Source of the DNA: a bacterium
GTDB taxonomy: Bacteria > JADJOY01
Assembly: GCA_046331705.1 (NCBI GenBank)
Contig: JAXLQJ010000003.1
Coordinates: forward strand, 124,001-188,000
Reading direction: 5' to 3'
DNA length: 64,000 bases
Positions 5,465 through 37,521 of this stretch are shown in pieces. Within the stretch, counting starts at the first letter, position 1, and every line of letters starts with the position of its first letter. Below the pieces are notes generated by a model. The model was given only the letters and a program-made list of their open reading frames with translations, was not told the DNA's origin and made no database searches. A program made the translations under genes and the position numbers.

Positions 5465-6127
5465 ATGATCCGTACACACACCCAATGGCGCTCTGCATTT
5501 CTCACCACGGCGATCGTCGCCGCGCTCGTCGCCATCGGCGGCGTCGCGAAGGCCGCGCCGACCCTGAACGTCAATGCGAGCGCCGCCATGGGTGGCAGCT
5601 CGCAGGGGCTCCAGGCCACGCCCGACGGCAGCCTCGATCCGAACGGTGACGTGTACGTTCAGGACGACACGCCTGCCAACGAGGGCCACTACCACTTCAG
5701 CTTCTACTTCGATCCCAACAGCTTCGACCCCGGCGAGGCGCAGAACCACAAGCGCATCCGGCTCTTCATCGGCTACAAGGACAACAGCGGCTCCTTGCAG
5801 CGCGCGATCGTGATCGTGATGATCCGCAACGGCGGCAGCTACACGATCTTCGCGCGGCCCCGTACCGACGACGGCGGCACCGCGGATACGGGCTCGTACG
5901 CCATCACCGACGGACCGCACCTCCTCGACTTCGACCTGACCACGGCCACCAACGGCAGCTCGGCGGACGGCGTGCTCTCGATGTCGATCGACGGCGTGCT
6001 CAAGGAAACCAAGACCGGTATCCAGAACAACCTGCGCAAGATCGACACGGTCCGCCTCGGCGCCATGACCGTGAAGGGCGGCGCGAGCGGATCGATCTAT
6101 CTGGACGAGTTCAAGTCGAACCGCTGA
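5465..6127 (+). CDS. Secreted 220-aa beta-sandwich (jelly-roll/ConA-like) protein; candidate acceptor for the FxDGFExG..W tag
   Basis: AGGA RBS. Signal peptide MIRTHTQWRSAFLTTAIVAALVAIGGVAKA|A. Mature part is beta-rich (YVQDDTPANE..YHFSFYFDPN, LSMSIDG, IDTVRLGA) and ends GSIYLDEFKSNR. Followed by a strong terminator. Confidence 0.85.
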   Translation: MIRTHTQWRSAFLTTAIVAALVAIGGVAKAAPTLNVNASAAMGGSSQGLQATPDGSLDPNGDVYVQDDTPANEGHYHFSFYFDPNSFDPGEAQNHKRIRLFIGYKDNSGSLQRAIVIVMIRNGGSYTIFARPRTDDGGTADTGSYAITDGPHLLDFDLTTATNGSSADGVLSMSIDGVLKETKTGIQNNLRKIDTVRLGAMTVKGGASGSIYLDEFKSNR

Positions 6128-6164
6128 TCCATCGCGATCGTGACGTGCGCTGAGCGGCGCACGG

Positions 6165-6203
6165 GAAAGGGCCCTTCCCACGGAAGGGCCCTTTCGCTTT
6201 CTC
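6165..6203 (+). terminator. Intrinsic terminator hairpin
   Basis: Perfect 14-bp inverted repeat GAAAGGGCCCTTCC-cac-GGAAGGGCCCTTTC followed by GCTTTCTC, about 40 nt after the 6127 stop. Confidence 0.85.
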
Positions 6204-6238
6204 GGCGCGGGCACGACGCGCCTCGCGAGTCCCCGATC

Positions 6239-7780
6239 ATGCTTCCGCATCGAGATCGCGCCCGGCGCCCCACCCCGCACCGCGCCCCACGCCCGCCGAC
6301 GCGTCGACGGCAGCGAGCCCGACCCGAGAACGCCGCCGGCATCGGCACGACGCGGGCGCGCCTCGTGCCTCGCGTCGCCTCGCTCGTCGCGGTCACGCTG
6401 ATCGCCGTCGCGACGCGGGCGTGGGCCGCGGAGCCGACCCCGGCGCCGGCGACGGCGCTTCGCCCGAGCGTGGTTCTGGTCACCGTGGACACGCTGCGCG
6501 CCGACGCGCTCGGCTGCTACGGTGCGGGCGCGGGCGCCACGCCCAACCTCGATCGGGTGGCGGCGGAGGGCGCCCAGTTCCTGAACGCGGCGTGCCCGAT
6601 GCCGCACACGCGCCCTTCCCATTTCTCGATCCTGACCGGGCTCTACCCACGCGACCACGGCGTGGTGAACAACTTGATCGCGCTGCCCGAGCAAGCGACG
6701 ACGCTCGCCGAGGTCTTGAGCGACGCTGGCTACGCGAGCGCGGCGTTCGTGGGCGCCGTGCACCTGAACCGGGCCTCGGGCGCCGCGCAGGGCTTCGACG
6801 AGCTATCGGCTCCCGCCGAGCCGGCGACCTGGACCGCCGATCAGGTGGTGTCGCGAGCGCTCGCTTGGCTGCGCAACGCCGCCAATCAACAGCGCCCGTT
6901 CCTGCTCTGGATCCATCTCTTCGATCCGCACCTGCCGTACGCGCCACCGGCGGCGTTCCGACCGCCGAGCCCCGCCGGCGCGCTCTCCGAGGTCTCTTGG
7001 CCGATCCTGCTCGACGTCGCGCGCCAACATGGCGGCGATGTCCCGGGGGCGGTGCGCGACCGAGCGCGCGCGCTCTACCAGGGCGAGGCGCGCTTCGTCG
7101 ATCACGAGATCGGCCGCGTGATCGAGCTTCTGCGCGAGCACGATCGCCTCGACCGCACGATCCTCGCGGTCACCGCCGATCACGGGGAATGCTTCGATCA
7201 CGGAGTCTTCTTCGATCACTCCGACTGCCTCTACGACGGTGCCATCCAGGTGCCGTTGCTGGTGCGCTACCCGCCCGCGGTGGCCAGCGCGCAGCGCCTC
7301 GGCGGCCAGGTCGAGCTGCGGCGGCTCCCGGCGACGATCCTGCGCCTGGCGGGGATCGCAGCGCCACCGCCCTTCGAGCCCGAGACGCTCTTCGAGCAAG
7401 CCGCGGATCCCCACGCGATGGCGTTCGTGGAGCGCGCGTTCTATCCCGCGGGGAGCGCCGAGCGACGTGACCAGCGCCTCACGACGATCCGCACGGTGGG
7501 CGGCGAGCCGATCCGCCCGCTCGATCCCGAGCAAGACTGGGTTGGTGTGCGCACCTCGGCGTGGAAATACCTGCGAATGGGCGAGCGCCGCGAGCTCTAC
7601 GACCTCACCGCCGACCCGCGGGAGCGAGCCAACGTGAGTGCCGAGCGGCCCGCGATCCGCGACCCGCTCGACGCCGCCCTCACCACCTGGCTCGGCGCCC
7701 ATCCCATTCGCGTCCTCGACGCCGGCCAGATCAACGAGCGACTGCGCGAATCGCTCGAGGCGCTCGGCTACACCCATTGA
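6239..7780 (+). CDS. Sulfatase-like (alkaline phosphatase superfamily) hydrolase/transferase, Thr-nucleophile type
   Basis: VVLVTVDTLRADALGCYG, PHTRPSHFSILTG, HLFDPHLPY, TADHGE, ELYDLTADPRE, C-terminal LEALGY. N-terminal signal/TM segment; start uncertain. Confidence 0.9.
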   Translation: MLPHRDRARRPTPHRAPRPPTRRRQRARPENAAGIGTTRARLVPRVASLVAVTLIAVATRAWAAEPTPAPATALRPSVVLVTVDTLRADALGCYGAGAGATPNLDRVAAEGAQFLNAACPMPHTRPSHFSILTGLYPRDHGVVNNLIALPEQATTLAEVLSDAGYASAAFVGAVHLNRASGAAQGFDELSAPAEPATWTADQVVSRALAWLRNAANQQRPFLLWIHLFDPHLPYAPPAAFRPPSPAGALSEVSWPILLDVARQHGGDVPGAVRDRARALYQGEARFVDHEIGRVIELLREHDRLDRTILAVTADHGECFDHGVFFDHSDCLYDGAIQVPLLVRYPPAVASAQRLGGQVELRRLPATILRLAGIAAPPPFEPETLFEQAADPHAMAFVERAFYPAGSAERRDQRLTTIRTVGGEPIRPLDPEQDWVGVRTSAWKYLRMGERRELYDLTADPRERANVSAERPAIRDPLDAALTTWLGAHPIRVLDAGQINERLRESLEALGYTH

Positions 7781-7788
7781 CCCGCGCG

Positions 7789-9329
7789 ATGGACCAGCCG
7801 CTCAGCGAGCCGCCGGCGCCCCGCCATCCTCCCGCGGCCGCGCGCGGATGGCGCGCCGTGTGGCGTCCCGACCGCTGGACCGCGCTCGCGGCGATGATGG
7901 CGATCGCACATTTCGCGTCGTTCCCCGCGCGCACCCATCCGATCGCGACCGACATCCGCTACTACGTCTACTACGCGGCCGAGTTGGCCCGCGGCCGCGT
8001 GCTCTATCGCGACACGTTCGATCCCAAGGGCCCGTTCGCCCCCGTGGTCGGCGCCGCGCTCCATCGGCTGGCGATGAAGCGGTCGGTGCCGATCCGCCTG
8101 CTCGGTGATCCGCCACGGCTTTCCTCGGCGCTGGCCAGCGTCGGCGCCGTCGGCGCGTTCTTGCTTGCATCGGCATCTCGCGGGCGGCCGCGCTGCCCTC
8201 GCCTTCGTCGGCCTGGCGGCCTATCTCGAACAGGCCTGCTCGGTAGCTCCTGCTCAAGAGGATCGGCAAGATCTGCAAGCTCGGCATGGACGGCGTGCGT
8301 GATCGCGGCGCTCTTCGTCGCACAGCGCGCGTGGCTGCTGGCGGGGATCGCCGCGGGGATCGCCGTTCTCGATCGGCAGATTGGCGCCGTCGCGGTGGCG
8401 GCGACCCTCGCGGCGTCGCTCTGCACCGAGCGCCACGTCCGCGCCGCGGCCGCCGCGCGCGTCGTGGCCGGCGTGCGCTCGCGCTCGCGCCCGTGGTCGC
8501 GGCTTCGCGGTGGCACCACGCTCGGCGACGCGCTTCGCGCACCGGTCGCGGCGTTCGCCCAGCACACCTCGGGGACAAGGCGGCGTGACTGCCGAAGCCG
8601 CGCGCCGGTGGGCGCTGGTGAGCAGTGCGTGCGGCCACCATGGCTCTTCGCTGCCGGGCTCGCGGGGATTCCCGTCTACGCCGGCTCGCTCACCCGGTCG
8701 CGGCGCGATCCCACACGCGCGGCGCCGATGCTCGCGATCGGACTCTGCCAGCTCGCCATCCTCGCGCTCAGCGCGTGGGAGCTGCAGGGCTACGGCGATC
8801 TCTTCGCGCTCCTCCACTGGCGTTCGGCGGATTCGCGCTGATCGCGCTCGGCGACGCGGCGCTCGCGCGCACCGACGCGGCGACCCGCAAGCCACGCCGG
8901 ACGCTCGCGGTGTTCCTGGCGCTGGCGCTCGTCGCCGCGCGGCCGTGGCAACCACGCGGCGAAGCGGCGCTCGCCACGCTCGCGACCCCGCGCGGAGTGA
9001 CGCTCGTCGAGCAGCGTGCCCTCGCTCGCGAGGTCGCGGACCGGCTCGGTGGACGGCGCGCGGCGTATCTCGGCCCGAGCGAGATTCCGTTCTTACTCGG
9101 CGTGAGCAACCCGGTGCCGTTCACGATCTGGCACGCCTCGGCGCACGCGTTCTACGCTCGGCCCGGCGAAGCGAGCTTCGACACCTTGTCCCGCATGTTG
9201 CACGACGCCGGGGTGGAGCTCGTGGTCACCGATCACGGCGTGCCGCCGGCACGGGACGGCGTGTTCGCGTTCCAGGAGACGATCGGCGACCCGAGCCGGT
9301 GTGCCGTCGACGTGTGGCACGTGCCGTGA
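7789..9329 (+). pseudogene. GT-C-fold membrane glycosyltransferase-like gene with multiple frameshifts (decay or sequencing error)
   Basis: Intact N-terminus (TDIRYYVYYA...GRVLYRDTFDPKGP). Hydrophobic TM-like text then switches frames repeatedly at about 8070-8820. After LQGYGDLFALL the C-terminus continues in the 8625-9329 frame. Confidence 0.7.
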
Positions 9330-19146: not shown

Positions 19147-19893
19147 CTACGGAGAGCTGGCCGACCAGCCGTCGAGCGCGCCCGCCTCGAAGCCGTGGAC
19201 GAACACGAGCGCGGCGTCGAGATCGCCGACGACGCCGGCGTTGTTGCCGGGCGAGGGCGCGCCGGAATCGAAATCGGCGGCGCTGTCGTCGGTGTCGTCG
19301 TTGGCGCCGACGATGGCGCACTCGAGGGTGGTGGCACCGCCAGCGACGGCGAGATCGCGCACCGCCGTCACGCCAGGCAACAGGCCGGTGGCTGCAGCGA
19401 ACGGCGTTCCGACGGCGGCGTCCGGCAGGTTCGAGTAATTCCCCCACGCGATGCAATCCACGCCGAAGCTCGGATCGAAGCAGACCTTGCCGCCGGACGG
19501 CACCAGATCCGCCGGCATGCGCAGATCGGCGCTGACGTGGAACGCCGCCTCCGCCGAGGACGTGGCCACCAGCACGCGCGACTGCGACGCGCCGTGCGCC
19601 AGGTCGCCGCCGAACGAAACCGAGCCCAAGACCGCGCCGGTCTTCGAATAGAAGGTGACGGGGTGCTGATCGACGAGATTCTGATTCGCGGTGCACATCC
19701 GCAGCTCGACGAACTGCGCGTCCGGATGCGTGACGTCGCCGGCGTAGACCTGGGTGATCCGCATCAGGTGGAACGTCGCGTGCGCGGACGTCGCGCACGC
19801 GAGCACGGTGCCGACGACGCCAGCGACGAGTCGCGCGCGGGCCCCGGCGCCGGGCCTTGGCCGCGAGTTGGGAGCGCGCTGTGCCGCATCCAT
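19147..19893 (-). CDS. Secreted lamin-tail-like beta protein with C-terminal FxxGFExG..W tag
   Basis: GGAG RBS. Signal peptide ending SAHA|TFHLMRITQVYAG..AQFVEL (LTD-like), DTDDSAADF..PSPG, C-terminus LVFVHGFEAGALDGWSASSP. Confidence 0.8.
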   Translation of the reverse strand: MDAAQRAPNSRPRPGAGARARLVAGVVGTVLACATSAHATFHLMRITQVYAGDVTHPDAQFVELRMCTANQNLVDQHPVTFYSKTGAVLGSVSFGGDLAHGASQSRVLVATSSAEAAFHVSADLRMPADLVPSGGKVCFDPSFGVDCIAWGNYSNLPDAAVGTPFAAATGLLPGVTAVRDLAVAGGATTLECAIVGANDDTDDSAADFDSGAPSPGNNAGVVGDLDAALVFVHGFEAGALDGWSASSP

Positions 19894-19933
19894 GTCCGCT
19901 CCGAGCGGGTCCGCGCGAGAGGGTGCGCCGAAG

Positions 19934-21451
19934 CTACTCGACGTAGCCGAGCGAGCGCAAAAGCTCGTTCGGTGCCTCGGGCCGCGAGGACGTCCCATCG
20001 CTCGATCCAGCAGGGCTACCGCGCCAGAGGTCGAGGCGGGCACTCATGGCGGCGAGGCGCTCGGGCTGATCGAGCACGGGTGCGCGCTCGGCGGGATCGA
20101 CGTCGAGATCGAAGAGCTCGAGGGACCGCGCGCCTGCGATTCCCGGATCGTGAAGAACGAGCTTGAAGCGACCTTCGCGAAGCGCGTACGCCTCGTAGCG
20201 GATCTCCGACGGCAGCCGGTAGTACGCGTGAATCGGTGCCGTCCGCGCCGCGCCGTCCCCGGCTCTCGGCAGTCGTGGCAGCGCGGCGAGCTCGTCGCCC
20301 GCGCCGAGCACGTCGAGCAACGTGCCCGCGAGCGCGACCGTCGACACCGGCGCATCGACGACGACGCCGCGCACGCCTCCCGGAGGGCGCACGATCAGCG
20401 GCACGTGCAGCACCTCCTGGTACACGTCCATGTGCATGAAGAACCGATGCTCACCGAAGGCCTCGCCGTGGTCCGCCGTGAACGCGAGCGCGGTGCCTGC
20501 ATCGAGCGCTCGCCCCCGCAATCCTTCGAGCAGTCGGCGCACGCCGTCGTCGACGTACGCGACGCCGCCGTCGTAGAGCCGTGCGAGCGTGTCCGCCGCG
20601 TCAGCGGGCAGCGTGAGCGGTGCGGGTAACGCGCGCCCGTCGACGAGCGCGTGATCGAGCGCCCACAAGAAATCCTGCGCGTGGCCGAGTCCCGGCGCGC
20701 CCCAGCTGAACGAGCGCGCGCCACCCTCGCCGAGGAAGCGTGAGCGGTACGGCTCGGGCTTGTCGTAGGGGAAGCAACGGGGATCGTCGCACGCCGCGCC
20801 GCGCGGCACCGCATGGGCCGACTTGGTGTGCAGGAAGAGGAAGAACGGGCGCGAGCGATCGCGTGTGTCGAGCCAGGCGAGTGCCGCCGCCACCGTGGCG
20901 CGCACGTCGTACTTGAAGACCGGCGGCAGCCCGGTGACGTGCGGAGCGTGCTGGTAGACGTCGAAGCCGCGCGCGAAGCCCCAGCGGCTGCCGACGAATC
21001 CATCCGGCGCCGAATCCACGAACGCCGCCGTCTGATAGCCGCGCCGGTGCAGGATCTCCGCGAGCGTGGTCGCCGGGGCGGGAATCTCGGCGGGATCACC
21101 GCGCAACCCCAGCTCGTACGGGTGGCGGCCCGTGAGCAACGCCACGTGGGCGGGGAACGTCCATCCCGCCGGCGACACGGCCTCGGCGTAGCGGATCGAC
21201 TCGGCGGCGAGAGCATCGAGGTTGGGCGAGGTCGGCAGCGAATGGCCGTAGCAGCCGAGGTGATCCGCGCGCAACGTGTCGATCGAGACGAGCACGAGAT
21301 TGGGAGGCGCAGCCGGTGCCGGCGCGGGCATCGCGCCTGGCGCGGGCTCCGAAGACCGGGCACAGGCTGCAGGGGACCCGAGCAACACGACGGCGAGGAG
21401 CACGGCCGCGAGGCGGCCCTCGCCCTCCGAATGCCGTTGCCCTGGCTTCAT
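19934..21451 (-). CDS. Sulfatase-like hydrolase/transferase, Thr-nucleophile type
   Basis: NLVLVSIDTLRADHLGCYG, GWTFPAHVALLTG, TADHGE, ELFDLDVDPAE, C-terminal LRSLGY. Confidence 0.9.
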   Translation of the reverse strand: MKPGQRHSEGEGRLAAVLLAVVLLGSPAACARSSEPAPGAMPAPAPAAPPNLVLVSIDTLRADHLGCYGHSLPTSPNLDALAAESIRYAEAVSPAGWTFPAHVALLTGRHPYELGLRGDPAEIPAPATTLAEILHRRGYQTAAFVDSAPDGFVGSRWGFARGFDVYQHAPHVTGLPPVFKYDVRATVAAALAWLDTRDRSRPFFLFLHTKSAHAVPRGAACDDPRCFPYDKPEPYRSRFLGEGGARSFSWGAPGLGHAQDFLWALDHALVDGRALPAPLTLPADAADTLARLYDGGVAYVDDGVRRLLEGLRGRALDAGTALAFTADHGEAFGEHRFFMHMDVYQEVLHVPLIVRPPGGVRGVVVDAPVSTVALAGTLLDVLGAGDELAALPRLPRAGDGAARTAPIHAYYRLPSEIRYEAYALREGRFKLVLHDPGIAGARSLELFDLDVDPAERAPVLDQPERLAAMSARLDLWRGSPAGSSDGTSSRPEAPNELLRSLGYVE

Positions 21452-24045: not shown

Positions 24046-24058
24046 CCGATCTCCCGGC

Positions 24059-25486: not shown

Positions 25487-25529
25487 GGCGCCACGCTCGG
25501 GAGGCGGTGCGAGCGAGCGAGGGCTCGAA

Positions 25530-28500
25530 TCAGTTGCACACGCGCGGGGGCGACGCCCTGGTCCACGCACAGGTATCGCCCAGATCGAAGCCATCCGAGA
25601 AGATCTCCGGGTTCATCGGTTGGAACTTGGCGATCACGTGGAGCGACGCACCGATGGGCACCACCAGAGGGTTCGCCGTCGAAACGACGTCACCGAGCCA
25701 TCCGACGAACTCGAACCCCTCGTTCGGGCTCGCGAGCAGCTTCGCATTCGTTCCCGCTTGGTAATCGGCGAGTCCGCACGTGGGGCTCGAGCCGACGACC
25801 GTGCCGCTCTCCGCGGGATCCGAATCCAAGGCCAGGGTGTAGCACGGTGCGCCCTCGCACGCGTTGCCGCGGCCGTCCCCGTCGTCGTCCGCCTGATCGG
25901 CGTTGCCATCGAGGGGACAGTTGTCCTCCGATTCACACACGCCGTCACCGTCGCCGTCGTTCTCGGGATCGTACGGACAGGGATCGAGCGGGGCGCACGC
26001 TCCGTCCGCGTCCAGATCGTCGTCGTAGTCGCCGGGACACGGATCGCACACATCCCCGTTTCCGTCGTCGTCCGAATCGGTCTGGATGGCGGGCGAGGCG
26101 TGCGGGCAGTTGTCGCAGAGATCGGGTGCCCCGTCCGCGTCGGCATCCGCCGTCGGCGAGGACGCGATCGTGATCTCGGTCGACGCCAGATGGCCCGCGC
26201 CCGCCGCACCCGCGCCAACGGCGTCCAGCAGGTGCGAGCCGAGGGTACCGAGGTCGACGGGCAACGCGATGGACGCGTCGAGCGCACCCTGACCGTCGGC
26301 ATGGAGCGTGCCGAGCTGGGTGACCACACCGAAGGTCTGGGACTTCACGCGCACGTACACGAGGTCTCCTGCGGCGAATCCGGAGGCACGCAGGCGCAAG
26401 GTCTGGCCCCGCGCGAACCAACCTGGGCGCGTCACGCACGGCGGCGCCGGATCGGCCGAGACCTCGAGGTCCGTCCACGTGGGCGCCACCAGCACGGATG
26501 GCGTGACCGCCATCGCCGCGGGTTGCCGAGCGGCGCCTTCGGGCGGATTCCTGGGAAGCCCGTTGCAGAGGAAACCGTGCTCCCAGCCCTGGTTCCTCTT
26601 GGCTTCCAGGTACGACATCAGCGCCCTGCCGTACTCGAGCTGGCCGCGCTCGTTCGGGTGGAAGCTCGCGGCCTTCGGGCTCTTCGCGCCCGAGATCCAC
26701 TCCTGCCCCTTCGGTGCGCACACCTCGTGGCCGCGGAATCGCTGGCTGACTTCGCCGACGAACTGGACCCCCGCCGCCGTCGTCGCCGCGCGGATCGCAT
26801 CGTCGAGCGCCTTGCCGGCGCTCACGATGAAGAGCCGCTCGGCCTGGCTCAGACCGAACCGACCGAAGGTGCCCAGACAGCTCGCGTCGCCCACCAGAAC
26901 CGGATAGTTGAGGACGAACACGGCGGCATCCTGCGCGCTGCTCCGGATGTCGCGGTAGACGCTCTCGAGGTCCGTTCGCGCCTGCGCGACACGGGCGGCG
27001 AGCACCTCTGGCCACGTTCCGGTGCCGTAGGGCAGGTGCGCTTGCTCGGTGGTGCAGTCGCCGAAGAGGCAGCGCTCCACCGCCGGCCCGAACGCAACGT
27101 CGTTCCCGCCGATGGTGATGGACACCATGTTGGTGGTGTCCATCACGACGCCCTGATCGAGCTGCGGCGGCTCCGTGAAGCGCCACACGCCGCCTTTCGC
27201 GTACGGCTTCACGTTCTTCGTCTCCGCACCGCTGCACGCGATGAACTTCCAGTCGAACTCCGGATCACCGACCGCCAGCTGCCAGACGGTCTCGGTATTC
27301 CCGGGCGTGCGGATCTTGGTCGCGTAGGCGTTCTCGGAGCGGTGGCATTGGTCCGTCTCCGTGTCGGTGCCGAAGAAATAGTCCGGCACGTTCTCGCCCG
27401 AGGAGTAGGAGTCGCCGAGGGCCGCGTAACGAACCGGGCAATGGATTCCATGGTGGTCGAAGATCGGAAGCAGCGGCGTCGCCGGATCGCGAGGCTTCAC
27501 AAACGCATCGTGAAACGCGCAGACGTCGGCGGGCCGCTCCGCCGCGACCGTCGACCAGATCGGCTCCAATCCGAACGCCACCGCATCCCAGCCTTCCGCA
27601 TCGAGCGGCGTGTCGAAGACGTCCCATAGCGTCGCCGCAACGGCACCCTCGTCCTTGCGATCCGCCGCGGGAGGCACCAAGGACTCGAGATCGCGCAGAT
27701 GCGTGATCTCGCCGCCCGGCGCGGCGGTGTCGACGAACGTGCGATCTCGCTGCATCGCCGCTTGCAGGAAGTACGACCAGCCGTGCACCCAGGCGCAGCC
27801 CGAGCTGGAAGGCGTCCCCCACTCGTGCGTGAGACAATTCGGGGTCGCGGGCGGGACGCCCCCGTAGAGCAGGTAGAGCACGTAGAGCGCGTACATGCGC
27901 AGCACCACGTCGTCGTCCTGCTGATCTCCGGAAGCGATCTGCACGATGCGCGAGGGGATCGAGAACCCGGTGGAGGCATCCGGGAAGCGCACCTGGAGCC
28001 GGCCGTCGTTCACGAAGCCGACATCCGCCTCGAGCGTGTCGAAGGCTTCGTTCGCGAGCAGATCGAAGACGTGCTCGGCACCGCTCGAATCCGCGCGGCG
28101 GTCCGCGAGATTCCATTCGACGGTTCCCGTGCACACGTCGCGCGCCGGCGAGCTGGAGGTGTTCACGTTGTAGATCGTGTTGGTCGAGGTGGTCGCCACC
28201 ACCGAGAACTCCGTCGGCGCGCCCGCGAGCGAGCCGCAGCGATCGCCCACGCCATCGCTGCACGTCTGCGACGACACGAACAGGTCCACCGAGTTGCCCG
28301 GCGGGTTGTAGAGGCAGAACACGAAATCGCCGGCCGCATCCGTGGTCGTCGCGTCGAAGTACTGGAACGTGAAGCTCTCCTTCACCCAGAGCTCGACGCG
28401 CGAGCGTCGGAGCGGCGCGTCCTCGCATCCCACTCGCACCGGATCCAGCGCGTGCTCGCGCGTGACCGTCGGCGTAAGCCCCGAGCACGTGATCTCGGAG

Positions 28501-28811
28501 GCGAAGTCCCGGATCACCGATCCGTCGCTGCAACCGGGCGGTGCGTACCCAACGCTTCCACGCACGACCAGATTGGTGTCGCCGCCGCAGCGCGGATCGA
28601 CGACCGAAGGGGCCGCACCTGCGTCGAGACTCCGCGGATCGTTCACGCGCAGACCCGTGCGGCCAGCATGCGCGGCGGCGGGCCCCGCGGTGTCGAAGGC
28701 GGGCTCGTCGTCGAACGACGCGAGCTCGCCTGCAGCGGCTCGGCCACCGGCGACCGCGAGCACCAGGGCGATGGCAACCCTCCCGAGCGCCGCTCTTCCT
28801 GGAATCACCAT
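25530..28811 (-). CDS. Large secreted multidomain protein: degenerate zincin-like domain, SEST-like SGNH esterase, Ig-like domain, thrombospondin type-3 repeats, InlB-B-like repeat, C-terminal tag
   Basis: Signal peptide. YAALGDSYSSGE..CHRSENAY, IACSGA, TIGGND and SFHPN (SGNH). DxDxDG..D.CD.CP repeats. SPNEGFEFVGWLGD. Ends IFSDGFDLGDTCAWTRASPPRVCN. Confidence 0.85.
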   Translation of the reverse strand: MVIPGRAALGRVAIALVLAVAGGRAAAGELASFDDEPAFDTAGPAAAHAGRTGLRVNDPRSLDAGAAPSVVDPRCGGDTNLVVRGSVGYAPPGCSDGSVIRDFASEITCSGLTPTVTREHALDPVRVGCEDAPLRRSRVELWVKESFTFQYFDATTTDAAGDFVFCLYNPPGNSVDLFVSSQTCSDGVGDRCGSLAGAPTEFSVVATTSTNTIYNVNTSSSPARDVCTGTVEWNLADRRADSSGAEHVFDLLANEAFDTLEADVGFVNDGRLQVRFPDASTGFSIPSRIVQIASGDQQDDDVVLRMYALYVLYLLYGGVPPATPNCLTHEWGTPSSSGCAWVHGWSYFLQAAMQRDRTFVDTAAPGGEITHLRDLESLVPPAADRKDEGAVAATLWDVFDTPLDAEGWDAVAFGLEPIWSTVAAERPADVCAFHDAFVKPRDPATPLLPIFDHHGIHCPVRYAALGDSYSSGENVPDYFFGTDTETDQCHRSENAYATKIRTPGNTETVWQLAVGDPEFDWKFIACSGAETKNVKPYAKGGVWRFTEPPQLDQGVVMDTTNMVSITIGGNDVAFGPAVERCLFGDCTTEQAHLPYGTGTWPEVLAARVAQARTDLESVYRDIRSSAQDAAVFVLNYPVLVGDASCLGTFGRFGLSQAERLFIVSAGKALDDAIRAATTAAGVQFVGEVSQRFRGHEVCAPKGQEWISGAKSPKAASFHPNERGQLEYGRALMSYLEAKRNQGWEHGFLCNGLPRNPPEGAARQPAAMAVTPSVLVAPTWTDLEVSADPAPPCVTRPGWFARGQTLRLRASGFAAGDLVYVRVKSQTFGVVTQLGTLHADGQGALDASIALPVDLGTLGSHLLDAVGAGAAGAGHLASTEITIASSPTADADADGAPDLCDNCPHASPAIQTDSDDDGNGDVCDPCPGDYDDDLDADGACAPLDPCPYDPENDGDGDGVCESEDNCPLDGNADQADDDGDGRGNACEGAPCYTLALDSDPAESGTVVGSSPTCGLADYQAGTNAKLLASPNEGFEFVGWLGDVVSTANPLVVPIGASLHVIAKFQPMNPEIFSDGFDLGDTCAWTRASPPRVCN
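25855..26150 (-). repeat. Thrombospondin type-3-like Ca-binding repeats (about 5-6 units) within the 1093-aa protein
   Basis: DADADGAPDLCDNCP / DSDDDGNGDVCDPCP / DLDADGACAPLDPCP / DGDGDGVCESEDNCP / DDDGDGRGNACE. Confidence 0.8.
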
Positions 28812-29088: not shown

Positions 29089-30372
29089 TCAACCGGACGC
29101 GCGCGCACACGTCTTGGGCGGCACGGACGACGTCCAGCTACACACCGACCCGTCGTCGAATGCACCGGTGAAGACTGGCATGTCGCATCCCCGGAGCGAC
29201 CATTTGTAGGGATTGCCGACGAGATCGGGCTGATCGATGAATCGCAGCGTCAGCACGTAGTTCCCGGTGGACGGGAGCTTCGTGGAGATCGAGTAGCCGG
29301 CGACGAACGGATCGGGACTCGCCTCGGTTCGCAAGCTCGCGTAGAAGCGCGGCCCACGGTAGGAGCGGATGTGAACCGCCTGGCCCGCCACACCGTGGAA
29401 GCGATATTGATCGATGTCGTCCACGGTCTGGAACGCGCCGACGAGGTTGTCGCCGAGACGCACCAGATCCGTGTCGCCACCGCCATTGGTGTCGGTGGAG
29501 GTCACGTTACCGATGCAGACGTCGTCGACGTACCAACCCTCGTAGCCGACCGTGGCGTCACACACGAATCCAAATCGGATCACCGTGTTCGGCCCGGTGT
29601 AGCCCGAGAGATCCACCACCGCGGGGCGAAATCGACCGAACGTGAAACCGTCCGGCAGCCCGCCGAGCGGCCCGAACGACTGGCTCGACGCGATCGGCGT
29701 GAACGTCGCGCCGCCGTCCGTCGAGACCTCGACACTGGCCGTGTCGTAGGAGAATCCCTCGGCGTCCAGGAAATGATTGAAGACGAGGCCAGGGCTCGAG
29801 AGGCTCGTGGTGTTGACGACAGGCGACGTCAGCGTGGCACCTTCCGCGAATCCCGTGCCGTAGCTGAAGGTCGCGGGATCGCCCCAGTAGAACGACGTGC
29901 TCGGCGAATGCCCGGGCGTCGCCGCGCGGTTCGTCACCCGCTGCCAGGTGAGCTGGCGCTGCACGTGGCCAGCGGTGAAGCCACCCGCATCCGCCTCGAA
30001 ATCCTCCGACAGCACCGAGCAGTCGGCGTCGACGAAATCGCTGTCCGCGACCGTGGTCGAGGTCCAGGGCTGCTCGGTGCAGCTGCTCGACGACGAGAGC
30101 GCGGCCATGTCGCGCCATTCGCTCTCCAGGCGTGCGCGCATGCCACCTGGCTTGGCGCGCTGATGGCCGTTCGGGCCGTCCGTGCCAGCCGCCGGCGTGC
30201 CCGGGTAGCGCCGCACCAGCGCGGTCGTGGCCTTCGCCTTGGAGCGCTCGCCGCCACGCTGGAGGGCGGCGGCCTCCGAGGGCAGGAACTGCTCCATCAC
30301 CGCGAGCGCCGCCCCCGTCATCAAGACGGCCATGAGGACGAAGCCCAACGCGTGCTGCTTGGCTCGAGCCAC
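29089..30372 (-). CDS. Secreted protein: MAM/immune-inhibitor-A-like jelly-roll + PPC-like domain + C-terminal tag
   Basis: Hydrophobic N-terminus (start may be 30333). VLSEDFEADAGGF...LTSPVV...VEVSTDGG...EGWYVDDV. DDIDQYRFHGVAGQAV (PPC-like). Ends VFTGAFDDGSVCSWTSSVPPKTCARASG. Confidence 0.8.
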   Translation of the reverse strand: MARAKQHALGFVLMAVLMTGAALAVMEQFLPSEAAALQRGGERSKAKATTALVRRYPGTPAAGTDGPNGHQRAKPGGMRARLESEWRDMAALSSSSSCTEQPWTSTTVADSDFVDADCSVLSEDFEADAGGFTAGHVQRQLTWQRVTNRAATPGHSPSTSFYWGDPATFSYGTGFAEGATLTSPVVNTTSLSSPGLVFNHFLDAEGFSYDTASVEVSTDGGATFTPIASSQSFGPLGGLPDGFTFGRFRPAVVDLSGYTGPNTVIRFGFVCDATVGYEGWYVDDVCIGNVTSTDTNGGGDTDLVRLGDNLVGAFQTVDDIDQYRFHGVAGQAVHIRSYRGPRFYASLRTEASPDPFVAGYSISTKLPSTGNYVLTLRFIDQPDLVGNPYKWSLRGCDMPVFTGAFDDGSVCSWTSSVPPKTCARASG

Positions 30373-30451: not shown

Positions 30452-32224
30452 ATGCGGCCAGGCCCATCCCCGCTCGGACGCCAGATCCGGCCATGGATCG
30501 CGGTCGCCATCGTCGCGCTCGCCGCCATCGTTCCCTACCTCGGCACCTTGCGCCACGGGTTCGTGTGGGACGACGGGATCCTCGTCGAGAGCGACCACCG
30601 CATTCGGTCGCTCGGCGCAGCATTGGGCGCCTTTCGCGAGGACTTCTTCGGCGATGCCGGCCACATGGGGTACTACCGCCCTGTCGTGACACTCAGCTTC
30701 GCGCTCGATTACCGCCTCGGACGATCGAACCCGTTCGGGTATCACCTCACGAACGTCTCGCTGCACGCGCTGGTCGCGCTGCTGGTGCTGGCGACGCTTC
30801 GTCAGTGGGGGGCAGCGCCGCGGGTCGCGTGCGTGGGCGCGGTGCTCTTCGCGGTGCATCCCGCGCACACGGAGAACGTCGCGTGGATCTCCGGTCGCAC
30901 GGACATCCTCGCCGCCGCATTCGCGCTCGCGAGCGTGTGGTTGCTGGGGATCCACGACGCGCGCGCCAGCGCGCGCGCCTCTCCCGAATCGCGCTGGCAC
31001 CGACTCGCGCGCGCCGCGTTGCTCGTCGGCTCCGCGGGTTGCTGCGCGCTCGCCTTGCTCTCGAAGGAGATTGCCCTGGCGCTGCCCGTGGTTCTGGTGC
31101 TGGACCGCTGGCTTCGGCGGCCACGGGATGGGCGATCGTCCCTCGCGATTCTTCCGCACCTGACCATCACCGTCGGCTACCTGCTGGTGCGCGTCCTGCT
31201 GGTGCCCCCGGCCATGACACGGGTGCCCCTGGACGCGACCCTGCGCTCGTTTCTCGCATCGCTCCCGAAATACCTCGGGCTCTTTCTCGTCCCTGCCGAG
31301 CTGACCGCGTACCGCCGCAATCCCTACTCCGGGTGGAGCGATCCGCTGTGGATCCTCGGCGCGATCGGCGCCGCGGGGATCGCGTTTGCAGCGCTGCGTC
31401 CCCGCACGCGGTGGCGCCCCGCCGAGCGTCTCGCGGTGCTCGGCACGCTCGCCACCTTCGCGCCGCTCTCGAACCTGATCCGGGTGAGCTCTCCGGCCGA
31501 CATGGGCTTCACGATGGCGGACCGCTTCCTCTACTTCCCGTCCATCGGGCTTTCGGCCATCGCCGCATCACTGCTCGTGTCGGCTACCGCGAGCCTGTCC
31601 GGCCGAGCGCGCACGGGGTGCAAGCTCGCGATCGGGGCGAGCATCCTCGGCCTCGCGATGACGACCCTCGGCCGCAATCGCGTCTGGCAGAACGACGTGA
31701 TGCTCTTCGAGGCGACACGCGCGACCACCGACGACGCCTTCCTGGTGGACGTCAACTACGCCATGGCGCTGAGACGAGACGGCGACCTCGCACGTTCCAT
31801 CGCCCTGCTCGAGGAGAAGGACGCAGCGACCCGGCCCGGCTCGCGAAACGAACAAGCCGTCCGGCTGGCGCTGGCGGGGGCGTATGCGGCGAACGGCGAA
31901 ACGGAGCGCGCGCGCCAGATGCTGCTCGCGCTGCGGGGAAGGACCCGTGAGCCGGCCCCGGTGCTCTACGACCTCGGGCTCCTCGACGAGAGCGCGGGGC
32001 GTGGCCGCGACGCGCTCGCGTGGTACCGGTCGGCCGCCGAGGCCGATGCCAAGCACATTCCCACCTGGGTCCGGGTGGTGCGCCTGGCGGACGAGGTCGG
32101 CGAGCGGGACGTCGCCTGCGCCGCACTCGTACGCCTGCGCGTCCTCGACCCACACCGCACCGACTGGGCGGAGCTGGATCCGGGCTGCCCATCGGCCTCG
32201 GCTGCTCGGAACGCGTCGCGCTGA
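30452..32224 (+). CDS. TMTC-like (DUF1736) GT-C protein O-glycosyltransferase with C-terminal TPR repeats
   Basis: FVWDD, YYRP, HPAHTENVAWISGRTD, LLSKE, ADRFLYFPS, RNRVWQND..LF, then TPR-like helices. Confidence 0.88.
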   Translation: MRPGPSPLGRQIRPWIAVAIVALAAIVPYLGTLRHGFVWDDGILVESDHRIRSLGAALGAFREDFFGDAGHMGYYRPVVTLSFALDYRLGRSNPFGYHLTNVSLHALVALLVLATLRQWGAAPRVACVGAVLFAVHPAHTENVAWISGRTDILAAAFALASVWLLGIHDARASARASPESRWHRLARAALLVGSAGCCALALLSKEIALALPVVLVLDRWLRRPRDGRSSLAILPHLTITVGYLLVRVLLVPPAMTRVPLDATLRSFLASLPKYLGLFLVPAELTAYRRNPYSGWSDPLWILGAIGAAGIAFAALRPRTRWRPAERLAVLGTLATFAPLSNLIRVSSPADMGFTMADRFLYFPSIGLSAIAASLLVSATASLSGRARTGCKLAIGASILGLAMTTLGRNRVWQNDVMLFEATRATTDDAFLVDVNYAMALRRDGDLARSIALLEEKDAATRPGSRNEQAVRLALAGAYAANGETERARQMLLALRGRTREPAPVLYDLGLLDESAGRGRDALAWYRSAAEADAKHIPTWVRVVRLADEVGERDVACAALVRLRVLDPHRTDWAELDPGCPSASAARNASR

Positions 32225-34370: not shown

Positions 34371-36316
34371 GGAGCCTCCGCGGGCCGCTGGGCGAGCGAA
34401 TCGGCGGAGTCGTCGAGCGCTTCGGTGCCCGATGGATCGAGCGCGAGCGCCCGCGCCGCCGCGGCAGCGGCCTCTGCCGATCGACCGGCTCGAGCGTAGG
34501 CATCCCTCAGCCGGTGCTCGACGGCCGGTGAGGTCGGATGCGCGAGCCGCGCCTCCTCCAGAAGCCCGATCGCTCGTTCGACATCGTTCGACCGCAACGC
34601 CAGCTGCGCTTCCGACTGGAGCCGAATCGCTTCGCGAATGGCCCACCACGAGAGCGAATCGGACGCGAACGAGCGGCCACCGGATGCGCTCGAATCCCGC
34701 ACCACCACCCGAAGGTCGGCCCCGGGGCTCACCATGGCGCCGCGCTCCGCGGTGACGATCTCGAAGACCGCGCTCGTGTGCGGCGCAAGAACTGGCGGAC
34801 CCTCGCGCGTCTCCCAGCGCAACGGCTGCCAGTTTCCGCGCTGCACGTCGAACACCGGTGTGAGTGGCTCGGTCGAGCGATTCTCGACCCGCACGCGAAT
34901 GGAGCAGATCCATCCCTGACAGGCGCGATTGCGCACCCGCAGCACTTCCGCGAGCCCGGGGGCGTCGGCGGCACCACCCGCGCGCACCCACACGAGCGCG
35001 GCGACGACCAACCACCCGCCGACCACGGCCACCGTTCCGAGCACCCTGCCACGGGAGGTCCGCGACGACGTCGCCAGCGCGTCGGCGGCGTCCTGGTCGC
35101 CCCAGTTCTCGAGGATGCCGAGCACCGCGATCGGCAACCACGCCACCCAATAGCTGTGAAAGCCTCGGTGCGAGAACCAGAGCAGCACGACGGGCGCCAC
35201 CCACGGCAGGCCGCGCGTCCTCGGATGCCAGAGCACCAGGATCGCCAGCAGCAGCATCAGCGTCGCCAGCATCAGCGCCGCGTATTCGCCGCGCCCGAGC
35301 GAGGCTACGCCGTGCTGACTGAGGAGCGAGAGCCCCTCACCGAAGGTCACCATCGGCAATCGAACGTTCGCGAACACCGCGTCGCTGAAGGCGCGCGGGT
35401 CCGCCCACAGAAAAGCCGCGTTGGGAACGAGGAACGCTGCGGCGGTGACCGCTGCGAAGCGAGCGGCGCTCCACGCGCGCCGGGTCGGCGATCGTCCGTG
35501 CTCCTCCAGAAACACGCGAACGAGCACGAACGGCAACGCGAGCCACGGCGGTTGCTTCACGGCGCACGCCAGCCCGAGACAGCACGCCGACCACGCCCAT
35601 CGTCGCCACGCCACGACGCACGCCGCCATCGGAAGCACCCAGACGAAATCGGTGACGGAAGCCGCGGCGAAATCGATCGTGGTGTGATCGATCGCCAGCG
35701 GCAGGAGCGTCCACGGACGCAGCGCGGCGGGCGTGCGTCGATGAATCAGGAGCAAGGTGGCGAGCTGAAAGAGCAGCACCGAATAGCGAAGGTCCGTTCC
35801 GCCCAGCCAGAGGTACGGGACGTGCGCCAGGAAATTGAGCGCCGGGTAGGTCACGTGGTCCACCAGTCCGCCGGACTCGAGCGGCGTGACCAGCTCGCGC
35901 GGAAGATGGAATCGCTCGTAGGCCGGGCTCAGATCGACCGGGTACGGGTTCTGCCCTTCGAGCACGAGCGCCGCCGCCTCGTGCGACAGCACGATGCTGT
36001 CGGTGCGATAGCCGACCCACTGATACTCGGCGACGATCGCGACCCGAATCGCGACTCCCACGATCAGCGCCAGCGACGCGACGCTCCCCAGGCGACGCGT
36101 CGTCGTCGGCACGACGGAAGCGATCAGGAAACCGCTGCCGGCCAGGAAGAGAACGAGCGCCAGCGCCACGAGCCAGGGATGTCGCGCCAGCGGCACGTGC
36201 TGCCAGAGCACCCAGAGAATCGCGTAGTACGACGCCGCGACGCCCACGGAACCGAGGCGCGCCACGGGTGGCTCGGCGCCCTCGTCGCGCCGTATCGGCT
36301 GGCCTTCCTCACGCAT
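34367..36316 (-). CDS. GT87-like GT-C membrane glycosyltransferase with periplasmic Ig-like and TPR C-terminus
   Basis: YRTDS..A..VLEGQNPY, TYPALNFL, VTDFVW, AVKQPPW; C-terminal TPR (AIGLLEEARLAHP...ARALALDP). Start uncertain (36316 or 36436). Confidence 0.78.
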   Translation of the reverse strand: MREEGQPIRRDEGAEPPVARLGSVGVAASYYAILWVLWQHVPLARHPWLVALALVLFLAGSGFLIASVVPTTTRRLGSVASLALIVGVAIRVAIVAEYQWVGYRTDSIVLSHEAAALVLEGQNPYPVDLSPAYERFHLPRELVTPLESGGLVDHVTYPALNFLAHVPYLWLGGTDLRYSVLLFQLATLLLIHRRTPAALRPWTLLPLAIDHTTIDFAAASVTDFVWVLPMAACVVAWRRWAWSACCLGLACAVKQPPWLALPFVLVRVFLEEHGRSPTRRAWSAARFAAVTAAAFLVPNAAFLWADPRAFSDAVFANVRLPMVTFGEGLSLLSQHGVASLGRGEYAALMLATLMLLLAILVLWHPRTRGLPWVAPVVLLWFSHRGFHSYWVAWLPIAVLGILENWGDQDAADALATSSRTSRGRVLGTVAVVGGWLVVAALVWVRAGGAADAPGLAEVLRVRNRACQGWICSIRVRVENRSTEPLTPVFDVQRGNWQPLRWETREGPPVLAPHTSAVFEIVTAERGAMVSPGADLRVVVRDSSASGGRSFASDSLSWWAIREAIRLQSEAQLALRSNDVERAIGLLEEARLAHPTSPAVEHRLRDAYARAGRSAEAAAAAARALALDPSGTEALDDSADSLAQRPAEAP

Positions 36317-36644
36317 CGCCGAACGGCATACCGCGCGCGCATGGCTCGAAGCCACCATCGGACGCGACCCACGGCGTCCGCCCGCGAGGAGCGCACCGTC
36401 CGCACTCGGGGCTTCGCGAGAGGACAGCTGAGCCATCGCGGGGATCGTCGCGACGAGGCGCAAGCGGCCACGGATGCCGACGCCCTCCACGAGCGCGTGT
36501 CAGCGCGTTCGAGCGATTCCGCGAACCCGTCCGCGGCGGAGCCGTCGAAGAGGGGCGTCGGCTCCACGAACGCGTCCGGATCGATCCCGTGCCCGCGGAG
36601 GCGACCCGGGATGGATGGGGGGGAGGCGCGGCGAGGGGTGGGCT

Positions 36645-36653
36645 TGCTACCAT
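36645..36653 (+). promoter_or_regulatory. Possible extended -10 element (TGCTACCAT) for the 36742 gene
   Basis: TGn-TACCAT about 90 nt upstream of the ATG in the divergent intergenic region. Confidence 0.3.
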
Positions 36654-36741
36654 GAAGCAGTGCGTCACCACGCGCAGGCAGGGGGGCCGCGAACGTTCAC
36701 CGACGACCCGTCGGTGCGGGACGGTCGACGCCGGAGGCTTC

Positions 36742-37521
36742 ATGAGACGCTCAACGGGTGAGACGAACGACTCGTCGCACATGCCCAGAAGCCGCGATCG
36801 CCACGCGACATCGCGCCACGCGCTCGCGGTCGCGGCGCTGGGCGCGCTGCTCCACGCCGCGGCCGTGCCGGCGTCGGCGACGCTCTACACCTCCCTCACG
36901 ACTCCCCTCGCGCCGGTGCCGGGCCCGAACAACCAGGCGCTGCTCACCCTCACGAACGTGACCCCGGTGGCCTGCAATCCAACGTGCCCGAGCGATACCG
37001 ACACGTCCTTCGTGACGGCGGGCAGCGCCATCGGCGTCACCTACGACACGCGAACCCGAACGGTGACGATCACCAGCGCGTCGCTGGCCATGACGGACGT
37101 ATCGCTCAAGGTCGGCGCGTTGCCGACGATCGCCGTGACCGACGTCGCGTTCGAGCTCGATCCGAACGCGCCAGCGGTCCAGGGCGTCGTGGACCCGGTG
37201 ACTCACGAGCTCGCGCTCACGATTCCCGCGATCGTTTCCGCGACCGCCCTCGGCCAGACCTTCGGCGGGGCCGTCGACGTGCCCGTCAGCGGCACGTTCC
37301 TCGTCGACATCCCGCCGGGCGGCACCGAGAACACCATGCTGCTCACCAACCCGTCCACGCCCATCGCTCCCGATCCATTCGACTTCCAGATCGGCCCGAT
37401 CACGGTGACGTTCCAGCTCACCGGCACGGTGACGTTCAACTTCCGCGGCACCTTCACGGCGCTCTTCGACGACACGTTCGAAGGCGGCACCCTCGACGCC
37501 TGGGTCGGTCACGTGCCGTGA
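36742..37521 (+). CDS. Secreted Thr-rich beta protein of unknown family with C-terminal tag
   Basis: GGAGG RBS (alternative ATG at 36781). Signal peptide ending VPASA|T. Thr/Val-rich alternating strands. Ends LFDDTFEGGTLDAWVGHVP. Confidence 0.8.
   Translation: MRRSTGETNDSSHMPRSRDRHATSRHALAVAALGALLHAAAVPASATLYTSLTTPLAPVPGPNNQALLTLTNVTPVACNPTCPSDTDTSFVTAGSAIGVTYDTRTRTVTITSASLAMTDVSLKVGALPTIAVTDVAFELDPNAPAVQGVVDPVTHELALTIPAIVSATALGQTFGGAVDVPVSGTFLVDIPPGGTENTMLLTNPSTPIAPDPFDFQIGPITVTFQLTGTVTFNFRGTFTALFDDTFEGGTLDAWVGHVP

Follow-up and report, generated by a model that had tools for sequence, protein, structure and literature searches.

A candidate split jelly-roll: a short terminal peptide of many exported proteins and a small secreted protein whose fold it may complete

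We describe a candidate tag-and-catcher pair found in a stretch of 64,000 nucleotides (nt), the window, which corresponds to positions 124001-188000 of contig C3 in G000, the genome of an uncultured bacterium (8.17 Mb, 71% G+C, 118 contigs, 95.7% complete). One partner, the catcher, is a small secreted jelly-roll protein encoded at 5465-6127 that is devoid of the first strand of its domain family. The other, the tag, is a peptide of about 20 residues that resembles this missing strand and is found at the very C-terminus of some 60 unrelated exported proteins. The tag probably docks to the catcher by strand complementation, and the two would then form a natural split-domain pair. In a fuller reading, the jelly-roll was split at least twice, independently, into a tag and a catcher that are locked non-covalently by Ca2+, and exoproteins are tethered in this way to a possibly sulfated polysaccharide of the envelope or matrix. 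We consider this fuller reading possible and put it forward with considerable reserve.

The consensus tag reads [ILV]F-x-D-x-F-E-x-G-x4-W-[ST]-x3-P-stop. A six-frame scan of the window with the pattern [ILVMF]F-x-x-x-F-[EDQ]-x-G returned exactly four open reading frames (ORFs), with stops at 37521(+), 29089(-), 19147(-) and 25530(-), and in all four the motif begins 19-28 residues before the stop. An earlier reading of the window, based on its letters and hereafter called the sequence-only reading, had noticed such a motif at the C-terminus of four unrelated secreted proteins; the scan confirms this, with 4 of 4 at the extreme C-terminus. Genome-wide, the strict motif F-x3-F-[EDQ]-x-G-x4-W matches 48 times among 10,938 ORFs of at least 100 amino acids (aa) that are rich in G+C at third codon positions (GC3), and the W is located 3-14 residues before the stop in 45 of these 48 matches. 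A tag profile found 59 ORFs of at least 200 aa with a tag no more than 11 residues from the end, or 60 when the weaker ORF ending at 37521 is counted. A DNA version of the motif gave 36 matches in G000, 0-1 per genome in 35 unrelated genomes and 0 in the reversed control, to which a search at the level of the phylum of G000, comprising 6 genomes only, added nothing. About six ORFs of G000 bear the motif near the N-terminus instead. In a minority form, represented by two of the four window tags, two cysteines bracket the W...P part (..G..C.W....P..C.). The tag is covered by no Pfam or NCBIfam model in scans of the window proteins and of the 60 tagged ORFs, and it has no transmembrane helix, hydrophobic stretch or basic tail, the chain stopping 3-14 residues past the W.

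The catcher gene is present in a single copy (one tblastn match in the 8.2-Mb genome), and scans of its product against Pfam (down to E <=0.1) and NCBIfam gave no match. The mature protein starts with ..TLNVNASAAMGG.., continues with the blocks YVQDDTPANE and FYFDPN and ends with IYLDEFKSNR; translation reproduces exactly the mature start, both blocks and the C-terminal end as they had first been quoted. A profile search of 1.84 billion cluster representatives returned 5023 matches at E <=1e-3 and 1677 at E <=1e-30, mostly long multidomain proteins. The whole domain is common on Chloroflexota proteins, usually behind Pro/Thr-rich linkers and often as the last domain, and the best-scoring domain stretch lies no more than 12 aa from the C-terminus in 61 of the 150 best representatives. 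Homologues of a length similar to that of the catcher number 41 at E <=0.01, all of them metagenomic proteins.

In an alignment of 33 homologues, the majority of the rows start with IFADGFESGxLxAWS...GDLSVS..AAL. The catcher (P0001), two close relatives and the distant P0042 pass in the same alignment from a signal peptide straight into the 'L.V..SAA' strand. The signal peptide of the catcher therefore stands where the fused homologues carry the first strand, and the same layout is observed in six further catchers. The blocks YV.DD.P..E, FYFDPN and YFD.F.S.R are common to the catcher and the fused copies, and in the alignment of fused and stand-alone copies, P0001 shares 23-49% identity with the remaining rows. 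We also surveyed 79 loci in named genomes, mostly Chloroflexota plus one metagenome-assembled genome of Vicinamibacteria with seven copies. The strand motif was recognized by regular expression in 72 loci and as slight variants in 3, two loci are cut by a contig end, and two are strand-less. The strand-less two are orthologues of the window protein, and the strand is shown by 75 of the 77 fused copies. The complete domain starting with the motif, which the sequence-only reading had described, is thus real. Its description of the catcher as this domain minus the first strand also holds, as the aligned part of the catcher starts exactly past the motif and the strand order of the structural models, described below, agrees.

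Co-occurrence across genomes is the strongest evidence pointing to a pairing of the tag with the catcher. It was assessed with a DNA pattern specific for C-terminal tags, which comprises the motif, the W, four codons, CCN and then TGA or TAA. The first sample includes 401 genomes from about 274 families and the second includes 251 genomes drawn evenly from the phylum of the genome G390; three genomes are shared, for a total of 649. In the first sample, the pattern was found only in G000 (23 matches), G001 (16), G002 (22), G005 (29) and the unrelated G390 (7), with 0 matches in reversed controls. The domain profile matched 8 of the same 401 genomes, and stand-alone strand-less ORFs of 215-235 aa, in which a signal peptide leads into the second strand, are present in exactly the five tag-positive genomes. 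In the second sample, at least 2 pattern matches were found only in G390, G505 (12), G552 (41) and G563 (2). The domain profile matched 7 genomes of this sample, and each of these four holds one strand-less ORF of 210-235 aa with a signal peptide. Combining both samples, a stand-alone strand-less catcher occurs in 8 of 8 tag-rich genomes and was found in none of the other 641, as the sequence-only reading had expected of a split domain. The tag-rich genomes span at least five families and two phyla, and their catchers are just 23-31% identical across lineages.

In five genomes that hold complete domains, the count of C-terminal tags is 0. The domain copies of G237 are all fused and strand-bearing, and G402 has tandem copies within a 789/861-aa frame. 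G517, a tag-free member of the family of G505, has six domain matches in long ORFs, which are fused copies; all four that were inspected begin with or follow the strand motif, one of them in a weaker form. G528 has a fused copy split over two frames, the upstream one closing with the strand motif, and the split reflects either a frameshift or an assembly error. G003 (86% complete) and G004 (74% complete), from the genus of G000, have neither tags nor catcher. Single pattern matches with no domain match were seen in G522 and G628 and stand as unexplained singletons. In a quick tree, the catcher label requires four changes, at least two of them forced by well-supported branches, with G390 and G505 on long branches, and the catchers of the window's family nest with fused copies of the same family. 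This is a weak hint that fission has occurred repeatedly, as opposed to a single recent transfer.

Structural models were obtained with AlphaFold2 (AF2) for the catcher and for P0006, a complete homologue that is 43% identical to it. The P0006 model has a mean local confidence (pLDDT) of 93.7 and a global score (pTM) of 0.90; its first strand is formed by LIFA of the motif (residues 10-13), and another short strand comes directly behind the W. The mature catcher, modelled alone, has a pLDDT of 96.0 and comprises 13 strands that align with strands 3-16 of P0006. The catcher model is devoid of the two N-terminal strands, and no segment of the catcher itself fills their place. A Foldseek search with the P0006 model gave as its best match the PL20 glucuronan lyase 2zzj (E 4.8e-9, TM-score 0.68), and other neighbours include 6kcw, 8q2a and Cip1 (3zyp, E 1.2e-6), with TtX122 domains, the alginate lyase Aly36B and a calreticulin lectin domain among them. 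The AF2 models and Foldseek together support a two-sheet jelly-roll of the ConA type that resembles Cip1 and PL20. At the sequence level, P0006 does not reach the gathering cut-off of the Pfam family PF14099 (18 bits vs 29.9), three of six other homologues scanned gave weak sub-threshold matches to this family and three gave none, and a sequence-profile search of the PDB returned no true match, only a spurious one of 44 residues. To our knowledge, neither lyase activity nor sugar binding has been reported for the catcher family.

The complex of both partners was predicted from the mature catcher with an alignment of its homologues and from the last 40 residues of a cargo protein with an alignment of 24 tags. 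The complex score (ipSAE) was 0.91 in each of three runs, compared with 0.00 for the best of three controls; contact agreement between the runs was 100%, and the pLDDT of the partner was 70. Of 80 solved complexes, 58 reach the mark set for this score, as do 2 of 110 mismatched pairs. The predicted contacts involve tag residues 22-25 (IFAD) and catcher residues 216-219 in the last strand, as well as tag residues 35-40 (WS..P) and catcher residues 64-70 (YVQDDTP). The new N-terminus of the catcher, residues 31-36, touches the tag too. The placement of the tag beside the last strand, first suggested by the sequence-only reading, is recovered in this way, and the predicted geometry is that expected if the tag replaces the vacant strands. 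In the two-cysteine form, a disulfide could close a loop over the part that is predicted to pair with the DDTP strand.

The same region of the fold harbors a Ca2+ site in Cip1. According to the Cip1 report (PMC3764139), the ion of the 'grip' is enclosed by three elements, namely the C-terminal strand 15, the loop 32-41 and the N-terminal loop Phe6-Trp15 behind strand Ile2-Asp4; it is coordinated by the main-chain oxygen of Asp5 and by Glu7, Ser37, Asn40 and Asp206. The grip is described there as the most conserved part of the fold, and PL20 is reported to have the same Ca2+ site (PMC3764139). The N-terminal I.DDFE...W segment of Cip1 corresponds to the tag motif, and the catcher blocks YV.DD.P..E and YFD.F.S.R correspond to the other two walls of the site. 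Motif comparison yields a putative site formed by the D and E of the tag, the near-invariant D214 in the last strand of the catcher, and the DDTP loop. By analogy, the Ca2+ idea of the sequence-only reading is consistent with the Cip1 and PL20 structures.

Judged by their sequences, most tagged cargo proteins appear to be of the surface type and to carry Sec signal peptides. A strict and crude heuristic assigned signal peptides to 28 of 60 tagged ORFs, compared with 793 of 3800 GC3-rich ORFs of at least 250 aa with tagged ones excluded, and at least 13 further tagged ORFs were judged by eye to bear one. Cargo families were inspected for the first 25 of 28 Pfam families and for the 25 most frequent of 52 NCBIfam families. 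Among the 60 tagged ORFs, Pfam identified FG-GAP (7), right-handed beta-helix (5), DUF5122 propeller (3) and subtilase (2) domains, and single cases include an M12 metalloprotease, a GDSL lipase, an S9 peptidase, BNR, LamG and a MAM-like domain. NCBIfam identified choice-of-anchor Q (8), choice-of-anchor J (2), CSLREA N-terminal (5), rhombotarget-A-like (5) and MtsC-like (5) families. Extracellular depolymerases of medium- and short-chain polyhydroxyalkanoates (NF050057, E 1.1e-91; NF050058) are also tagged, which fits an activated-sludge lifestyle.

In the window, cargo 2 matches PF13472 (E 3.3e-13), PF18998 and PF02412, and its signal peptide was assigned by heuristic. The start of cargo 4 is most likely at 36781 and not at 36268, because GC3 exceeds 0.85 only past about 36640 and a signal peptide follows 36781; a Pfam and NCBIfam scan of 36268-37518 gave no match. 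Cargo 3 contains, within its MAM-like domain, the internal pair VLSEDFE ... GWYVDDV to which the sequence-only reading had drawn attention. Cargo orthologues were sought in tag-bearing and tag-free species, G001 to G005: the cargo 3 protein had no match at E <=1e-10, and cargo 2 matched through its shared repeat modules only. The motif also stands at the N-terminus of two FGE-sulfatase proteins, where it directly precedes a domain that is not a jelly-roll. The tag thus behaves as a portable module that can sit at either chain end, which suits docking in trans and not a C-terminal signal for secretion or transpeptidation. Together with the sulfatases beside the catcher, these two proteins give the system a 'sulfatase flavour'.

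From its gene content, which includes three sulfatases, a YfhO and three or four GT-C membrane glycosyltransferases, the window appears to be a region of glycan assembly (Table 1). The catcher and the sulfatase that follows it probably share an operon, to judge from their spacing. The three sulfatases of the window are interleaved with tagged cargo and GT-C genes. Contig C3 (280 kb) holds 10 of the 60 tagged genes, four of them no more than 32 kb from the catcher, where about 0.24 per 32 kb would be expected (60 in 8.17 Mb), a count made post hoc. Polysaccharide genes lie beside 5 of 7 catcher loci: the ABC-2 permease and sulfatase in G000, a PMT_2 GT-C gene that precedes the catcher in G390, a sulfatase and a sulfotransferase in the unrelated G552, a family 4 glycosyltransferase (GT4) in G563, and a GT2 gene at the G005 locus L121. 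At the other G005 locus, L120, which belongs to a sister genus, a tagged gene and the catcher are separated by 40 nt, and this arrangement looks like a fused gene cut by a stop codon and a new signal peptide.

Between G000 and G001 or G002, the catcher gene is 88-89% identical in nucleotides and its flanks are 75-81% identical (window 2600-9000); G003 and G004 hold no locus syntenic with this region. The stretch 5300-6300 is present in metagenomes of activated sludge, wastewater and digesters from 13 studies, and six runs from four studies are recorded as RNA. Contigs from the RNA libraries of these four studies match the catcher gene at >=99% identity, for example over 633 nt with 3 differences (window 5179-6135). 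These matches lend weak support to transcription of the catcher gene. Two RNA-library contigs begin at 5414-5416, about 50 nt before the ATG, which is too little for a call of the transcript start.

Table 1. Coordinates of the catcher, the tags, the tagged proteins and associated genes. Positions are those of the window unless a contig is given.
Feature	Position	Strand	Description	Basis
Catcher gene	5465..6127	+	220-aa secreted jelly-roll protein without the first strand of the domain family	translation
Catcher signal peptide	5465..5554	+	residues 1-30, predicted cleavage after AKA	judged by eye and alignment columns
Cargo 1	19147..20043	-	secreted, likely start near 19893; signal-peptide-like stretch by eye	ORF; no Pfam/NCBIfam family
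Tag, cargo 1	19150..19206	-	VF-x-H-G-F-E ... W-S-x3-P-stop	motif scan and alignment
Cargo 2	25530..28811	-	1093-aa secreted GDSL lipase/esterase with thrombospondin-3 and InlB B-repeat modules	Pfam
Tag, cargo 2	25533..25604	-	two-cysteine form ..C.W....P..C.	motif scan and alignment
Cargo 3	29089..30372	-	427-aa secreted protein, MAM-like jelly-roll	PF20773, E 5.9e-7
Tag, cargo 3	29092..29175	-	two-cysteine form	motif scan and alignment
Cargo 4	36781..37521	+	secreted protein of about 246 aa	GC3 profile and signal peptide; start revised from 36268
Tag, cargo 4	37462..37518	+	LF-D-D-T-F-E-G-G ... W-x4-P-stop	motif scan and alignment
ABC-2 (Wzm-type) polysaccharide-export permease	4028..4876	-	divergent from catcher	PF01061, E 1.1e-24
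Sulfatase	6140..7780	+	starts 13 nt past the catcher stop	PF00884, E 5e-41
Three paralogous sulfatases	6140-7780, 19934-21451, 24059-25594	+, -, -	similar ..L..LGY.. tails	PF00884
GT-C membrane glycosyltransferases and YfhO-like	13337-14764, 16059-17699, 21448-24237, 30452-32221	+, -, -, +	PMT_2/PMT, one with tetratricopeptide repeats (TPR)	
FGE-sulfatase protein (L221)	C16:105445-106509	-	N-terminal two-cysteine tag motif, few residues before the catalytic domain	
FGE-sulfatase protein (L222)	C16:10527-11714	+	N-terminal two-cysteine tag motif, few residues before the catalytic domain	
G005 locus L120	G005:C425, 1-1407 and 1450-2112	+, +	tagged FG-GAP/VCBS gene, then catcher; 40 nt gap	
G528 split gene (L206)	G528:C15, 141-1523 and 1357-1965	+	cargo-strand-domain gene over two overlapping frames	

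In the mechanism we propose, the ancestor would be a ConA-like jelly-roll of about 210 residues, of the Cip1/PL20 type, which large extracellular proteins of Chloroflexota and Acidobacteriota carry whole, at their C-terminus or close to it. This domain always starts with [ILV]F-x-D-G-F-E-x-G-x4-W-S, and the split would fall in the loop after this segment. The body would be made once, as the small Sec-exported protein encoded at 5465-6127, and the 20-residue first segment would have been transferred to unrelated exported proteins, as the extreme C-terminus of about 60 and as an N-terminal element of a few. Once outside the cytoplasm, the tag would insert as two short strands and complete the sandwich, one of them pairing with the last strand of the catcher (..YLDEFKS.R) and the other with the YVQDDTP strand and its loop. 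By analogy with Cip1 and PL20, this would complete a Ca2+ site with ligands from the D and E of the tag, the C-terminal D of the catcher and the loop, and Ca2+ bridging, predicted by homology, would favour assembly outside the cytoplasm. The cargo would gain, non-covalently and without a sortase, a module that its counterparts elsewhere carry covalently. Since the catcher has no tag of its own, no polymer is expected. Judging from the fold, the neighbouring genes and the type of cargo, the completed module most likely acts as the undivided domain does elsewhere and would bind a polysaccharide of the cell envelope or matrix, tethering enzymes and adhesins near the cell.

The same binding might serve another purpose, the catcher being a periplasmic escort or export handle that caps the tag and not a tether. 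The completed jelly-roll would in that case be a common folded signal for an outer-membrane secretion machine (e.g. type II) or for quality control. The organism is a diderm, as indicated by BamA, and both partners have Sec signal peptides only, so they would first meet in the periplasm; a small, soluble, unanchored catcher encoded by a single gene for many cargo proteins would suit this role, and no exosortase EpsH (PF09721) was found in the 95.7%-complete genome by a search limited to this enzyme. We nevertheless regard an escort as rather unlikely, because the complete domain is common in Chloroflexota, preceded by linkers and often last in the chain, as the 61 of 150 best representatives illustrate, and because catcher genes lie beside polysaccharide and not secretion genes in 5 of 7 loci. 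A classical outer membrane is generally considered absent from most Chloroflexota, and the undivided module would then more likely act outside the cell.

A more distant explanation treats the tag as a sorting or processing signal for another machine, such as a protease, a transpeptidase or a glycosyltransferase, and the catcher as an unrelated lectin or lyase linked to the source domain of the tag by common ancestry alone. Choice-of-anchor, CSLREA and rhombotarget-type families carry enzyme-read C-terminal anchors in other lineages, and choice-of-anchor Q and J, CSLREA, rhombotarget-like and MtsC-like proteins are all among the tagged cargo. The window is crowded with GT-C/PMT_2 glycosyltransferases, which also occur next to the G390 catcher, the terminal Pro is conserved and might mark a processing site, and we also considered that the tag might be a WxxW-like site for C-mannosylation or other glycosylation by the neighbouring GT-C enzymes. 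Against such a machine stand the joint presence of tags and a strand-less catcher in all eight tag-rich genomes and none found in the 641 others, a cut in the catcher that falls exactly at the end of the tag, N-terminal tags before FGE-sulfatase domains, unlike C-terminal enzyme-read signals, and a tag with neither transmembrane helix nor basic tail; we find this explanation improbable. It is more improbable still that the tag has no partner and is a Ca2+-binding hairpin that stands on its own, or a cap protecting the C-terminus that domain decay has left behind. AF2 folds the catcher well without the tag, and the two-cysteine variants could be small autonomous loops; however, the register of the tag at the chain end is maintained in sixty copies whose attached folds are unrelated, conservation of F, D, F, E, G and W would not result from decay, lineages whose catchers share just 23-31% identity have retained one and the same layout, and tags and catcher were lost together in G003 and G004.

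Several observations weigh against strand complementation and tethering as proposed here. The binding mode of the tag is a prediction, and the score of 0.91 may only echo the fused fold known to the model and to the alignment, in which case it measures likeness and not binding. The catcher folds confidently without the tag (pLDDT 96.0, and 89 with unrelated partners), so the models give no sign that the strand is required. The 641 genomes counted as other than tag-rich are negative in the sense of 0-1 matches of a strict pattern (D, E, W, four codons, P, TGA/TAA), and related genomes are not independent, so that the real contrasts are perhaps five or six. G323 and G369 have weak partial domain matches in frames of 671 and 955 aa, where the strand was left uninspected. 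Surface display is not implied, since BamA (673 bits in G000) indicates an outer membrane, so that the periplasm may be the meeting place of the pair, and the mature catcher is a soluble protein of 190 aa with no lipobox, anchor or repeat. The sequence-only reading had proposed an abundant scaffold or S-layer subunit in the role of the catcher, a suggestion that finds no support here. We infer glycan binding solely from fold class and neighbourhood, and two of the seven catcher loci have no polysaccharide neighbour, namely G505, where an extracytoplasmic function (ECF) sigma factor, an anti-sigma factor and a methyltransferase flank the catcher, and L120 in G005. At a 1:1 ratio, about 60 cargo proteins would all depend on a single catcher gene. 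The RNA runs were chosen for holding the catcher stretch, their libraries may contain DNA, and the flanks of the gene, left almost bare by these contigs, are uninformative on relative expression.

We compared the pair with known systems and found that it fits membership of none of them. The undivided jelly-roll family is homologous to the catcher and has the first strand in the same chain; here, the strand is carried by separate proteins, and a signal peptide of its own precedes the body. Cip1 (3ZYP) and the PL20 glucuronan lyase (2ZZJ) of Trichoderma/Hypocrea match in fold and in the N-terminal I.DDFE...W segment; both are single-chain proteins, whereas the catcher family has no detectable sequence similarity to any PDB chain. 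Donor-strand complementation, as in chaperone-usher pili, archaeal cannulae and Tat-dependent bundling pili, likewise relies on a strand-less β-sandwich completed by another polypeptide, and archaeal cannulae are reported to have a jelly-roll fold with involvement of Ca2+ (10.1101/2024.12.30.630787). For the catcher, the missing strand is documented by the alignment, the AF2 models and the survey of loci, and supply of the strand by another polypeptide is suggested by the predicted complex (0.91 vs 0.00) and by co-occurrence. Donor-strand systems, however, join like subunits into filaments, whereas here a generic tag on many unrelated proteins would fill one monomeric receptor; they assemble with a chaperone and usher or by themselves, and no chaperone or usher is implied here, where no search for such genes was made.

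Cohesin-dockerin systems also equip many secreted enzymes with a shared terminal docking module for one receptor type and depend on Ca2+. The similarity is at the system level: dockerins are folded modules, about 70 residues long, and their cohesin partner is already complete, whereas the tag has 20 residues that would complete a fold. Dockerin and Cohesin are not among the first 25 of 28 cargo Pfam families, and the catcher has no Pfam match. LPXTG/sortase, PEP-CTERM/exosortase, MYXO-CTERM and GlyGly-CTERM/rhombosortase signals are alike in chain-end position and kinds of cargo. These enzyme-read signals consist of a motif, a helix and a basic tail, whereas the tag has no helix or tail, is also found N-terminally, and has a binding protein as its predicted reader. 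The C-terminal domain (CTD) of type IX secretion systems (T9SS) is a folded domain of about 80 aa, compared with about 20 aa for the tag; its model is not among the 25 most frequent of 52 NCBIfam cargo families, a comparison that did not extend to a search for T9SS genes. In the engineered SpyTag/SpyCatcher and split-GFP systems, a short peptide restores a split β-rich domain, and SpyCatcher forms an isopeptide bond. Both use other folds, and nothing in the tag-catcher pair hints at a covalent link. A literature search by motif string, strand complementation, sorting signals and split domains, with subscription journals mostly outside its scope, returned no description of the tag or of a split receptor.

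The present work adds tag-rich genomes from two phyla, a presence/absence table of 649 genomes, a controlled complex prediction, the link to the Ca2+ site of Cip1, the N-terminal tags and the polysaccharide neighbourhood. Known sorting and docking systems rely on an enzyme reading a C-terminal signal, on a whole folded docking domain, or on strand exchange between like pilus subunits. If the tag docks by completing the fold of the catcher, the pair would represent a new kind of bacterial system for protein sorting or docking. It would also provide a small natural peptide/protein pair for protein engineering, probably switchable by Ca2+ or ethylenediaminetetraacetic acid (EDTA). Should the full tether reading be true, dozens of exoproteins per cell would be held on one anchor module, and biotechnology would gain an orthogonal peptide tag. 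For the bacteria themselves, docking would mean that one small receptor serves 10-80 unrelated cargo proteins per genome through a 20-residue peptide. The domain would be economised, with about 190 residues spared per cargo, and a common unannotated C-terminal motif of Acidobacteriota and of this candidate phylum from activated sludge would be accounted for.

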